DNA from: a virus
Lineage: Duplodnaviria > Heunggongvirae > Uroviricota > Caudoviricetes
Direction: 5' to 3' (one strand)
Length of the DNA: 6,784 nucleotides
IMG/VR virus record: IMGVR_UViG_3300029843_000219
The notes beneath the pieces are model-generated. The model searched no databases. It had not been told where the DNA came from and worked only from the letters and a program-made list of their open reading frames with translations. The translations under genes were made by a program, and so were the position numbers. This document shows, piece by piece, positions 3,697-6,784 of this stretch (the first letter of the stretch is position 1; every line of letters begins with the position of its first letter).

Positions 3697-3900
3697 TTAC
3701 CACTGAATACCGGCACCGAGTGCGGCGGAGTATTCACCCTGGCTATTGGTACTACCTTGTAATTTGTAGACCCAACGACCATTGGCGCTCACCATCGACA
3801 CACCTAAAGCAACAGCCGATTCACCGTTGTAAGTACCGCCACCAATAGAGGCCATGCTGGCACCCGGCGTGTAAGCCTGCGGCAGACCGGTCATTGCCAT
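3697..3900 (-). other. YadA-like C-terminal membrane-anchor (translocator) domain of the adhesin
   Basis: Last ~65 residues show alternating small/hydrophobic residues forming four predicted beta-strands and a terminal W, immediately after a heptad-patterned coiled coil. Confidence 0.75.
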
Positions 3901-6784
3901 TGCAGAAGCGATACCACCACTCAGCTTGCTTTCAGTTTTGGACAGTTTGTTATCCATCTCAACCATGCGCTGATCGGTGTATTGCTTCGTTTCCTGCACA
4001 CTTTGCTTCAACTGCGCATAGTTCACTGCGTCGTTGTTGTTCACGCCAGCAGAAACGTTGCTGATGCGAGTCGTACCGCTATTGCCGCCACCGAGAGTGA
4101 TGTTGCTGTAGTCGATAGAGCCATCAGCTTTGGTGTCGTAGCGAACGCCGCCTGCTTCAGAAGACTTCAGTTGCGAAACGTTAACCGCATCGGTGGCATT
4201 AACACCGGCAGCAACGTTGGTGATACGACGCTGGTTGGTAGAAGAACCCACAGAGATGGTGTTTTCTTCGTCTGCTACGGAACCCGTGCCCAGTGCGACG
4301 CTGTTGTCAGCGGCAGCAATGGAACCAGAACCAATCGCAACACTGTCTTTACCCTGCGCGTTGGCATCTGCGCCATCGGTGTTGGTCTTGAAGTACTTAG
4401 TGCTACCGGTGGTTACGATATCGCCAATGCCGTTTTCGATATTGGTCACGCGAGTATCCAGATTAGTGACCTGAGTGTTCAGGTTAGTAATGCTCTGGGT
4501 ATTCTGGGAAACCTGCGCGTCCGTTACTTTCAACTGACCCACGTTAACCGCATCGGTATCCGCCGAACCTGCTGCGACGTTGGTGATCTGACGTTGACCG
4601 TCTTCACTGCCGACAGAGAACTCACCCACAGAGTTCTGCGGTGCATCCATGTTGTAGGCAGTGTAGTTGGTCTGCGCACCACGGGTAGTCTGAGAACCAT
4701 TACCCATTGCAATGCTGTCGGCATGATTTGCGCGTGCGTTAGAACCGATAGCAATACCGTTGATCGCATCAGCCAGAACCAGCGTGTTCAGGCCGATACC
4801 AATACCCGCATTACCATTAACGATGGTTTTCGCGCCCATTGCCAGCGAGTCTTCACCGACTGCCAGTGAGTCTTCAGCCGTTGAGTTGGCGTGATAGTAT
4901 TTGGTTGGTGTGGTTGCGACTGCACCAATGGCGTTTTGCAACTGGCGAACAGTGACCGCATCATGGGCTTCAGAACCATCCGCGACGTTGATGATTTGAC
5001 GATATTTACCGTCATCACCAATCGACAACGCGCCAAGCAGTTCGCCATCCGTGGTGTCATAACCAATCACAACACCTTCTTCCGATACGCTGGTGTTACG
5101 AGTCCCTTTAACTATTACACGGCTGGAAACGGAACTGCTACCCAGAGCGATACCCGTATCAACTTCGCTGATGCTGTCCTGACCGATGGCTACACTGCTG
5201 GCATGAGAGGCAACTGCGTTATAACCTACAGCTGTAGCGCCAATACCTGAAGCGCTGGCATCGTTGAACGCTAAGCCGCTGTCGTTGGTACGTACATAGT
5301 TAATACCCGCACCGTTTTCCTCGATGTAGGTTTCGCTAGTGTTACCAGCAAGCTGGTTAATCATTTGGCTATTTTGCGTAACCAGAATATTGGTTGCGTT
5401 TAACTGGGAACCGTTAACAGCATCGGTACTGGTTGTGGAGAGATCACCAGCCGCAACGTTGGTGATTTTGCTGGCATTGCCATCATGGCTGGCGTTGTAG
5501 GCACCTGCGTCTTCATCCCACAGCAGCGCGTTATTATCGAGCGCATCCAGGGCTTCACCGACGTTGTTGTAATCGGTATTTGCAATGGTGTAAGTCGGTG
5601 CAGTGATAGTACCGTCAGCGTTGACTTCTGCATCACCACCCAGCGCATCAGCGATGTACTTATTAGTGCTATAGAGCTGTGAGCCATTAATGGCATCGTT
5701 GCTGGTGGCAGAGACTGCACCGTTAGCGACGTTAGTGATTACACTGGCAGTTTTATCTTTCCCGTGAGCGGCGCTAAATGCACCGTTACCGCCATTGGCT
5801 GTTGTATCCCACAGCAGAGCATCATCCAGCGTGGTATCGATCGCTTCCAGCGCGTCACCGACGTTGTTGTAACTGCCGCCAGCGATGGCATAAGTTGGTG
5901 TAGTGATACTGCCGTCAGTGTTCACCACAGCATTCCCGCCCAGAGCATCGGCAATGTAGTCACTAACACCATAAAGTTGTGAACCGTTAATGGCGTCGCT
6001 GCTGGTGGACGAGACTGCACCGTTTGCAACATCAGTGATTACACTGGGAGCATTATTAATGCCGTGTTTGGCGCTGAATTTGCCTGCGGTTGCATCCCAA
6101 AGTAGGGCGTCGCCGAGTGATGTGCTAAATGATGTGTTAATGGCTGCCAGAGCATCACCGACGTTAGTGTAGTCAGTACCACCAATAGTGTAGGTTGGCC
6201 CACTTAATACACCCGTATCGCTGATATCAGCACCACCACCAAGATATGACGTAAATGAATCCGCTACGCCATAAAGTTGTGAGCCATTAATGGCATCAGT
6301 GCTGTTAGAAGATATCTTGCCAGCCAGTAAGTTGGTGATCTTGCTGGTAGCTTCGGTACCGTGCGCGGCGCTGAATGCGCCAGCCGCTTTGTTCCACAGC
6401 AGAGAATCGTCCTTAAGGTCGCCAACGGAATCCGTCAGGTTAGTGATGTTGGTGGTGTTGGTCGACACGTTATCGTTGGTGGTTTTGAGCTGGGAGCCGT
6501 TAACGGCGTCAGTGCTGCCAGCTGTCAGGTCACCGGCTTTGACATTGGTGATCTTGCTGGTGGCGTCAGTGCCGTGAGCGGCGCTGAATGCGCCAGCTGT
6601 TTTGTTCCACAGCAGGGAGTCGTCACCGAGACCGTTAACAGCGTCAGTCAGGTTGGTGATGTTGGTGGTGTTGGTCGACACGTTATCGTTGGTGGTTTTG
6701 AGCTGAGAGCCGTTAACGGCGTCAGTGCTGCCAGCTGTCAGGTCACCGGCTTTGACATTGGTGATCTTGCTGGTGGCGTCAGTG
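3697..6784 (-). CDS. upaG: Trimeric autotransporter adhesin (type Vc), SadA/UpaG/EhaG-like; partial, 5' end beyond the window (about 1029 C-terminal codons present)
   Basis: Uninterrupted minus-strand frame from the window edge to TAA at 3697-3699. The C-terminus (...[63 protein letters not shown]) is a YadA-type beta-barrel anchor ending in aromatic W, preceded by a coiled-coil stalk ([40 protein letters not shown]). Upstream are repeated neck motifs (ITNVAAG...DAVNVGQL), YadA-head-like repeats (SVAIG..S.ALG) and DALL/HANS-like motifs (DALLWD..AG.FSA.HG). The symbol is a family-level guess (upaG in UPEC, ehaG in EHEC, sadA in Salmonella); the exact allele cannot be determined here. Confidence 0.88.
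5390..6252 (-). repeat. About 300-bp (about 100-codon) degenerate tandem modules in the adhesin passenger domain
   Basis: Three successive modules share the pattern ALLWD..AG.FSA.HG....[22 protein letters not shown]...[19 protein letters not shown]....YNNVG.AL. DNA segments around 5641-5760, 5941-6060 and 6241-6360 align at roughly 75-80% identity by eye. Confidence 0.7.
6253..6784 (-). repeat. In-frame 213-bp (71-codon) tandem repeats inside the adhesin passenger domain, about 2.5 copies visible, continuing beyond the window
   Basis: Positions 6478-6570 and 6691-6783 differ at a single position over 93 bp (offset exactly 213). The encoded unit [12 protein letters not shown](A/S)V..DDSLLWNK(T/A)[10 protein letters not shown](D/E)ATSKITN... 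recurs three times; the third, innermost copy is more diverged. Confidence 0.85.

Follow-up and report, generated by a model that had tools for sequence, protein, structure and literature searches.

The 6,784-nt window (the whole stretch of DNA that was analysed) carries on its minus strand, at 3697..6783, the 3′ 58% of the chromosomal gene upaG, in the allele shared by uropathogenic E. coli CFT073 with the related strains Nissle 1917, ATCC 25922 and 83972. We assign this identification a probability of about 97%. Across positions 3300..6784 the window was identical at the DNA level to the upaG region of all four strains, and of others besides (100.0% identity, 3,485 nt, E=0), and its product is an exact substring, residues 751–1778, of the 1,778-residue CFT073 UpaG (WP_001033292.1). 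The upaG identity of this part of the window, whose DNA is 100% identical to an annotated and characterised gene, could not realistically be overturned. The gene encodes a trimeric autotransporter adhesin of the SadA/UpaG/EhaG type (type Vc), and an earlier reading made from the sequence alone was right to place it in a known family rather than in a new system. That reading had also considered that the allele might be distinct in length or module order; instead, the part in the window corresponds base for base to CFT073 upaG. The identification is thus already known, as the gene, its architecture, partial structures of its orthologue, its biogenesis, binding and position, and the K-12 deletion have all been published. 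UpaG (c4424) of CFT073 was reportedly described by Valle et al. in 2008 and Totsika et al. in 2012. No result points to a new function of the adhesin.

Reading frame of the upaG part

Read on the minus strand from 6783 to 3697, the sequence has 1,028 sense codons in one uninterrupted frame before a TAA stop (3697–3699), in agreement with the proposed frame of more than 1,000 intact codons, and this frame continues past the right window edge. The span first proposed for the gene, 3697..6784, was correct at its left end and off-frame by one base at its right end, where 6783 is the in-frame limit; translated as proposed, it yields many stops. Among mechanically listed ORFs, a 994-residue frame with a GTG start at 6681 was rejected as a window-edge artefact, the true start in CFT073 lying 2,250 nt further on, and a 295-residue antisense ORF (3982..4869, plus strand) had no Pfam match and was interpreted as arising by chance opposite a repetitive gene. 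Scanning the entire window with Rfam at its gathering thresholds returned no match.

As the window edge falls inside upaG, the start codon and signal peptide are out of view, and a truncation or frameshift just past the edge could in principle have left the source strain with a pseudogene remnant. The long tandem repeats inside the gene, with units of 213 and 234 nt, are liable to slippage and assembly errors, and degraded upaG-type copies are present in some records (L014 and L015, for example, with fragmented matches). However, none of the 1,028 codons in the window is damaged, and the same allele is annotated as a full-length CDS, with no pseudogene flag, in many complete genomes; we consider a remnant very unlikely, and the gene is probably intact. 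The features of this part and of its neighbourhood are collected in Table 1.

Table 1. Features of the 6,784-nt window, ordered by position.
Feature	Coordinates	Strand	Remarks
lldD, 5′ part	1..857	-	Leaves the window at its left edge
lldR	854..1630	-	Holds the K-12-type/ST73-type switch within 1530–1656
lldP, L-lactate permease	1630..3285	-	CFT073 annotation mapped onto the window
lldPRD control region	3358..3500	-	Palindromes AATTGGN5CCAMTT at 3484–3500 and 3358–3374
Intrinsic-terminator-like hairpin	3523..3552	-	After upaG and before the lldP promoter region; consensus scan
Two inverted REP-like units (BIME-type)	3570..3672	-	Just downstream of the upaG stop; inverted repeats
upaG, 3′ part	3697..6783	-	Codons 751–1778 and TAA; 5′ 2,250 nt beyond the right edge
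Membrane anchor	3700..3969	-	UpaG 1689–1778; last residue is the Trp of the β-signal; limits from PMC5670179
Last neck-type motif	4009..4065	-	UpaG 1657–1675; ten motifs of this kind in the window-encoded part; regex map
Membrane-proximal head-like, neck and coiled-coil region	4156..4953	-	SadA fragment PDB 2yo0/2yo1; YadA_head repeats
Repetitive stalk modules	5401..6783	-	Five LLW motifs, six neck motifs, three LGG/PTY insertions (motif map)
Tandem DNA repeat	6332..6784	-	213-nt period (71 aa), 2.1 copies, 90% matches; Tandem Repeats Finder

Domain architecture

The scan suggested for YadA-type anchor, head and stalk domains found all three in the window protein. Pfam YadA_stalk matched in 10 stretches (E=6e-97), YadA_head in four (E=2e-13, with the best repeat at residues 809–835), and YadA_anchor matched the last 61 residues (968–1028; nt 3700–3882) with E=3e-19 and 69.3 bits against a cut-off of 22.7. 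The anchor structures of Hia in the PDB (3emo, 2gr7) match at E=4e-22, the YadA anchor structure matches as well, and the protein terminates in ...GAGIQW, that is, with an aromatic final residue; the earlier description of this end as a textbook YadA-type anchor was well founded. The UpaG anchor segment trimerises into a 12-stranded outer-membrane β-barrel, and both the domain limits and the effect of the W1778A substitution have been reported (PMC5670179).

The ten neck motifs located by a regular-expression map coincide with the 10 YadA_stalk stretches of Pfam, and the one nearest the anchor corresponds to the “Him motif 1655–1675” of the published domain assignment (PMC5670179). A stalk module consists of LLW(D/N)...FSAxHG followed by the neck motif ITNVxxG...DA(V/I)NGSQL, and the three inner modules contain an inserted (A/Y)LGGxA...PTYxI...NVG(D/E)AL segment. 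The region of these modules is matched by the SadA fragments 2yo2, 2ynz, 2yny and 3zmf in the PDB. Residues 611–876 of the window protein are matched by 2yo0/2yo1 (E=1.8e-141), with no more than scattered substitutions in the alignment printed, and a further SadA fragment, 2yo3, matches at E=2.6e-92.

The tandem DNA repeat runs on beyond the window, where CFT073 also has a 234-nt unit in 3.6 copies. According to Pfam, the rest of CFT073 upaG, outside the window, encodes an ESPR domain (residues 1–48, E=9e-18), 13 YadA_head and five stalk stretches.

Comparison with other trimeric autotransporter adhesins

Matching against UpaG, EhaG and SadA, as had been proposed, placed the gene clearly. The window and CFT073 share the same neighbours and are identical over the whole window part of upaG (3,088 nt) and the downstream spacer; this comparison covers the part in the window, the 5′ 42% of the gene lying outside. 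The two differ at 76 positions in the lldR/lldD flank and at none within the upaG part seen.

EhaG of O157:H7 EHEC is a positional orthologue, located between a sadB-like gene and lldP, with the same architecture and with its last 100 residues identical to those of UpaG. It is shorter, however (1,588 residues compared with 1,778 in UpaG), and amino acid identity is 75% over UpaG 600–1778 and 54% over the N-terminal part. At the DNA level, ehaG showed 83% identity to the window with 37 gaps over 3640–6166 and nothing matching beyond; these identities (83% nucleotide, 75% amino acid) rule out the EhaG allele for the window gene. EhaG is reported to bind intestinal rather than bladder cells.

SadA of Salmonella enterica (STM3691) is likewise a positional orthologue: its gene is found between the mtl and lld operons and forms an operon with that of the lipoprotein SadB. 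The 260 residues of UpaG nearest the membrane closely resemble the crystallised SadA fragment 2yo0, whereas the distal passenger modules vary in number and order between the two proteins, and matches there are limited to short SadA fragments (E=1e-10 to 1e-35). SadA is also the smaller protein, at 147 kDa as against 178 kDa for UpaG. YadA (Yersinia), Hia (Haemophilus) and Ata/AtaA (Acinetobacter) have in common with UpaG the type Vc anchor and the head, neck and stalk building blocks, but this is kinship at the domain level only, with all whole-protein NCBIfam scores far under the family cut-offs (for example, 222 versus 2,500 bits for Ata). The NCBIfam names Ata, Vomp, EmaA, BimA and YadA were rejected for the window gene as shared-domain matches far under their cut-offs.

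Proposed biogenesis and function

This analysis itself covers sequence identity, domain content, synteny, distribution and the limits of the K-12 deletion; the secretion steps, binding targets, SadB role and terminator function described here are drawn from the literature or from inference. CFT073 UpaG has been demonstrated experimentally to be a surface-exposed homotrimer (PMC5670179). Based on the literature on the family and on UpaG itself, the 1,778-residue precursor would be exported through Sec by means of its extended signal peptide, after which three C-terminal segments of ~90 residues would form one 12-stranded β-barrel in the outer membrane, with the Bam complex assisting. The three passenger chains would then thread the barrel and fold into a long fibre composed of head, neck and coiled-coil stalk modules. 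The SadB-type inner-membrane lipoprotein encoded just upstream of upaG in CFT073 is expected, from what is described for Salmonella SadB, to help display UpaG on the surface. In published work, a CFT073 upaG mutant is described as having no significant colonisation defect in a mouse UTI model, and upaG is reported to be repressed by H-NS; together, these observations suggest that the in vivo role of upaG is modest or conditional.

The spacer between upaG and lldP

The upaG stop codon is separated from lldP by 411 nt (3286..3696). Both genes are on the minus strand, so the adhesin gene does lie directly upstream of lldPRD and co-directional with lldP, as first described. The same description allowed only a BIME and a terminator between the two genes; a BIME-type pair and a terminator-like hairpin are indeed present, but the spacer additionally contains the lldPRD control region. 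The REP-like pair is predicted to fold at −55.5 kcal/mol (z=−6.7). Its units are dispersed repeats: a query containing them gave a median of 36 matches per genome, and further copies are found between cysE/trmL and mtlD/mtlA. The hairpin that follows has a 13-bp stem (−20.9 kcal/mol, z=−6.5) and then a T-run, UUUUCUUUAUU; it is kept in K-12 with small changes and probably functions as a terminator.

A pattern search located the two palindromes of the control region with their centres 126 nt apart, where 0.01 matches would be expected by chance. These are candidate LldR operators O1 and O2, an assignment that follows the sequences reportedly given by Aguilera et al. 2008. The BIME-type pair and the hairpin would set upaG apart from an independent, LldR-controlled lldPRD promoter. 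In the published description, O1 and O2 flank the core promoter (PMC8689689).

Conserved gene order and the K-12 deletion

The lldP side of the locus was read in the window itself, and the side of yibL and the sadB-like gene in CFT073 and other genomes. The gene order in CFT073 is mtlR-yibT-yibL-(DUF3251, sadB-like)-upaG-lldP-lldR-lldD. The sadB-like gene encodes 227 residues and ends 43 nt before upaG. Its product matches the SadB crystal structure (PDB 4c47, E=7.5e-68), although Pfam gave no match for this protein, which RefSeq names DUF3251. A sadB-like gene adjoins the adhesin in nine other loci as well. The order yibL, sadB-like gene, trimeric autotransporter gene, lldP is common to E. 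coli CFT073, O157 (with ehaG), Shigella flexneri, E. ruysiae, Escherichia sp. E1V33 and Pseudocitrobacter, and a partial contig of E. albertii is consistent with it from the sadB-like gene to lldR. The earlier statement that enterobacterial SadA-family adhesins are reported next to lldP agrees with this order. Among 5,426 complete E. coli genomes, the anchor-coding end was found in 4,155, always as a single chromosomal copy, which gives a current prevalence of 77%.

At this site K-12 carries 10 nt instead of 6,678 bp, and both upaG and the sadB-like gene are absent. Homology to K-12 stops at 3639, inside the second REP-like unit. In K-12, yibL is directly next to lldP, as had been stated, and this arrangement had led the sequence-only reading to regard the adhesin gene as a strain-variable insertion at a conserved site, in other words a horizontally acquired genomic islet between yibL and lldP. 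The strong variation of the passenger between strains (83% nucleotide and 54–75% amino acid identity to O157 ehaG) would also speak for an insertion. We give this scenario hardly any credence. The gene order is identical in several Escherichia species, Shigella and Pseudocitrobacter, the same order is reported for Salmonella, and the literature describes K-12 as having lost the sadBA-type operon by deletion (PMC3953254). Furthermore, the annotation of the CFT073 segment lists no mobility gene (integrase, IS) and no tRNA, the G+C content of the adhesin segment (0.50–0.55) is like that of its neighbours, and the K-12 break point falls within a REP unit of which CFT073 has the complete copy. The conserved gene order and the presence of the anchor-coding end in more than three-quarters of the genomes show that the locus is ancestral in Escherichia and close relatives, and that deletion removed it from K-12 and from roughly one in four sequenced E. 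coli. The proposed synteny comparison thus upheld the difference between K-12 and other strains while correcting the polarity of this presence/absence polymorphism, which reflects loss in K-12 and not gain in pathogens.

A mosaic window

Positions 1..1529 of the window are K-12-type (100% identity over 1..1540), and 1657..6784 are ST73-type (100% from 1530 on). The switch takes place inside lldR, within a stretch of exactly 127 nt common to both types (1530–1656). As the left 1.5 kb is not ST73-type, a plain CFT073 or Nissle origin does not fit. Neither the whole window nor the 321-nt junction was found at 100% identity in any of the 5,426 complete E. coli genomes.

We flag the window as a mosaic, possibly an assembly chimera. 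The length of the shared stretch, 127 nt, is one that de Bruijn metagenome assemblers often use as their final k, and position 1530 of the window is precisely where an unrelated k127 MAG contig ends. The absence of the combined types from every complete genome would also fit an assembly that joined two E. coli strains into a chimera, in which case the neighbourhood of the adhesin gene would be partly artificial. However, homologous recombination likewise resolves inside identical stretches, and the 200-nt junction haplotype is present in two other metagenome contigs, 98.4% and 93.9% identical to the window. On balance, we rate a chimera as a serious possibility at somewhat under even odds, and we give about an even chance to a natural recombinant, in which ST73-type upaG-lldP is joined inside lldR to K-12-type lldR-lldD. 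The gene order is equal in both parents, and the reading of upaG is unaffected by a chimeric origin. A recombinant, if real, would point to a recent exchange between phylogroups, with one end beside the adhesin locus.

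Identity of the adhesin gene

The adhesin encoded in the window is UpaG itself, an already known protein, and there is nothing new about it. A megablast search of 3300..6784 against 5,426 complete E. coli genomes identified strains with 100.0% identity over all 3,485 nt, including CFT073, Nissle 1917, ATCC 25922 and 83972, and in every case the matched feature was annotated as "upaG: trimeric autotransporter adhesin UpaG". Sixty-one records matched this region at ≥99% and a further 286 at 95-99%. CFT073 upaG (5,337 nt, 1,778 codons) carries no pseudogene flag, and the window translation is an exact substring of its product from residue 751. 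Together with the 61 records, this places the allele, as judged from sequence, in the CFT073 group, which we take to be ST73, rather than among new alleles; the sequence-only reading had considered it possibly distinct.

The minus-strand frame contains 1,028 sense codons without interruption, confirming an intact frame of more than 1000 codons, and extends beyond the right window edge. The right limit originally assigned to it, 6784, was one base out of frame, and 3697..6784 translates with many stops. The mechanical ORF list shows just a 994-aa ORF here, with a GTG start at 6681, because any ORF that overruns the window edge is cut back to its earliest possible start.

Membership in the SadA/UpaG/EhaG-type family was also borne out. 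EhaG, the positional orthologue in E. coli O157:H7, shares 75% amino acid identity with UpaG over the C-terminal 1,179 residues and 54% in the N-terminal part. Crystal fragments of SadA, the Salmonella orthologue, matched the window protein (2yo0, E=1.8e-141; 2yo3, E=2.6e-92), the alignment covering ~260 residues with merely scattered substitutions. NCBIfam models of other named trimeric autotransporter adhesins (TAAs) matched via shared domains alone and far below their cut-offs.

Domain architecture and function

In the window-encoded part, Pfam identified YadA_stalk (E=6e-97, 10 stretches), YadA_head (E=2e-13, four stretches) and YadA_anchor (E=3e-19, covering the last 61 residues). The Hia and YadA anchor structures also match the C-terminus, in agreement with the YadA-type anchor proposed from sequence. 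The rest of CFT073 upaG encodes an ESPR extended signal peptide with 13 YadA_head and five stalk stretches. In its distal part the window gene is built of tandem DNA repeats with a 213-nt unit, and beyond the window CFT073 has a 234-nt unit as well; both are a likely source of allele length variation and of assembly errors.

Residues 1-53 of UpaG form the signal peptide and residues 1689-1778 the beta-domain; trimerisation of its barrel segments takes place in the periplasm and precedes Bam-dependent insertion, and the beta-signal includes the C-terminal Trp (PMC5670179). A CFT073 upaG mutant is reported to show no significant impairment in a mouse UTI model, and hns deletion derepresses upaG. 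In Salmonella, SadB raises the surface display and integrity of SadA (PMC3953254). The 227-aa gene upstream of upaG in CFT073 matches the SadB crystal structure (4c47, E=7.5e-68) and, by analogy, may have a SadB-type role in display.

The upaG-lldP spacer

The adhesin gene lies directly upstream of lldPRD and is co-directional with lldP. Their 411-nt spacer contains a BIME-type element and a terminator-like hairpin, and the REP-like units have further copies elsewhere in the genome. With the REP pair, the terminator-like hairpin and the lldPRD control region all in this spacer, upaG is most likely transcribed as a unit of its own, apart from lldPRD. Two palindromes in the control region have centres 126 nt apart, against a chance expectation of 0.01 matches; we take their sequences to be those assigned to O1 and O2 by Aguilera et al (2008). 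They probably represent O1 and O2, the LldR operators at the lldPRD promoter. Such operators flank the core promoter (PMC8689689).

Features of the window and of CFT073 upaG
Feature	Location	Details
lldD (start of gene)	1..857	same strand as upaG
lldR	854..1630	same strand as upaG
lldP	1630..3285	same strand as upaG
AATTGGN5CCAMTT palindromes	3358-3374 and 3484-3500	n=2; lldPRD control region, upstream of lldP
Terminator-like hairpin	3552..3523	13-bp stem, -20.9 kcal/mol, z=-6.5, then T-run
Two inverted REP-like units	3570..3672	fold -55.5 kcal/mol, z=-6.7
upaG open frame	3697..6783	minus strand; TAA stop at 3697-3699
In-frame tandem repeats, stalk modules	CFT073 locus (L001) 9033..10207, partly window 6332..6784	213 nt + 234 nt, 90-96% matches
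Neck-type motifs ITNVxxG...DAVNxxQL		n=10 (motif map)
LLW(D/N) segments		n=5 (motif map)
Inserted LGGxA...PTYxI segments		n=3 (motif map)

Synteny and the K-12 deletion

The CFT073 gene order is mtlR-yibT-yibL-(227-aa gene)-upaG-lldP-lldR-lldD-trmL, and in O157:H7 ehaG takes the place of upaG in an otherwise identical order. In K-12 W3110, yibL lies directly beside lldP, as the sequence-only reading had it. The order mtlR-yibL-sadB-like-TAA-lldP-lldR is common to Escherichia sp. E1V33, E. ruysiae, Shigella flexneri and Pseudocitrobacter cyperus, and a partial E. albertii contig (sadB-like to lldR) agrees with it. In Escherichia, Salmonella and Shigella, according to Grin et al, the sadBA operon is flanked by the mtl operon on one side and the lld operon on the other, and a deletion in K-12 covers both of its genes (PMC3953254).

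In our comparison, 10 nt of the K-12 locus (L002 6646..6655) replace 6,678 bp of CFT073 (L001 6341..13018), comprising half a REP pair, upaG, and the sadB-like gene with its upstream region. On the left, the break splits the second REP unit at window 3639/3640; on the right, it lies ~10 nt away from the stop codon of yibL. The two ends show no obvious direct repeat. The 404 nt coding for the anchor are present as a single chromosomal copy in 4,155 of the 5,426 complete E. coli genomes. No mobility genes are annotated in the CFT073 segment, and its G+C (0.50-0.55) is similar to that of the neighbouring sequence. Based on the shared gene order, this wide presence, the lack of an annotated mobility gene and the ordinary G+C, the adhesin locus is an ancestral one that K-12-like strains have lost, not one inserted in pathogens; the strain-variable insertion at a conserved site initially proposed is therefore abandoned.

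E. coli-type upaG/lldP (95-100% amino acid identity) also occurred in contigs of public MAGs assigned to Oscillospiraceae, Bacteroidales and Bacillota, and in one assembly of Mesobacillus maritimus (L004, L005, L012 and L013), almost certainly through binning or contamination errors. In the complete-genome records of S. flexneri SFBU0723 and E. coli ECMA0423 (L014, L015) the DNA is highly similar, yet the protein matches for lldP, lldR and mtlR are fragmented and of low identity, which suggests many assembly indel errors and not real pseudogenes.

Mosaic structure of the window

The whole window is absent from all 5,426 complete E. coli genomes, the best match being 98.9%. All 76 differences from CFT073 fall in 1..1529, with many of the intervals between them a multiple of three, and 1530..6784 is 100% CFT073/ST73-type. 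Over 1..1540 the window shows 100% identity to K-12 MG1655, as it does to many other strains, and differences from K-12 start at 1657. The two types coincide over 1530..1656 (lldR start/lldP stop), a stretch of exactly 127 nt. No complete E. coli genome matches the 321-nt junction at 100%; its 200-nt core is present in two gut-metagenome contigs that otherwise represent different strains, and a MAG contig with "k127" in its name stops exactly at window 1530. The window is either a natural recombinant of K-12-type and ST73-type sequence or a de Bruijn-graph (k=127) assembly chimera of two co-occurring strains, and the verdict on upaG is the same for both.
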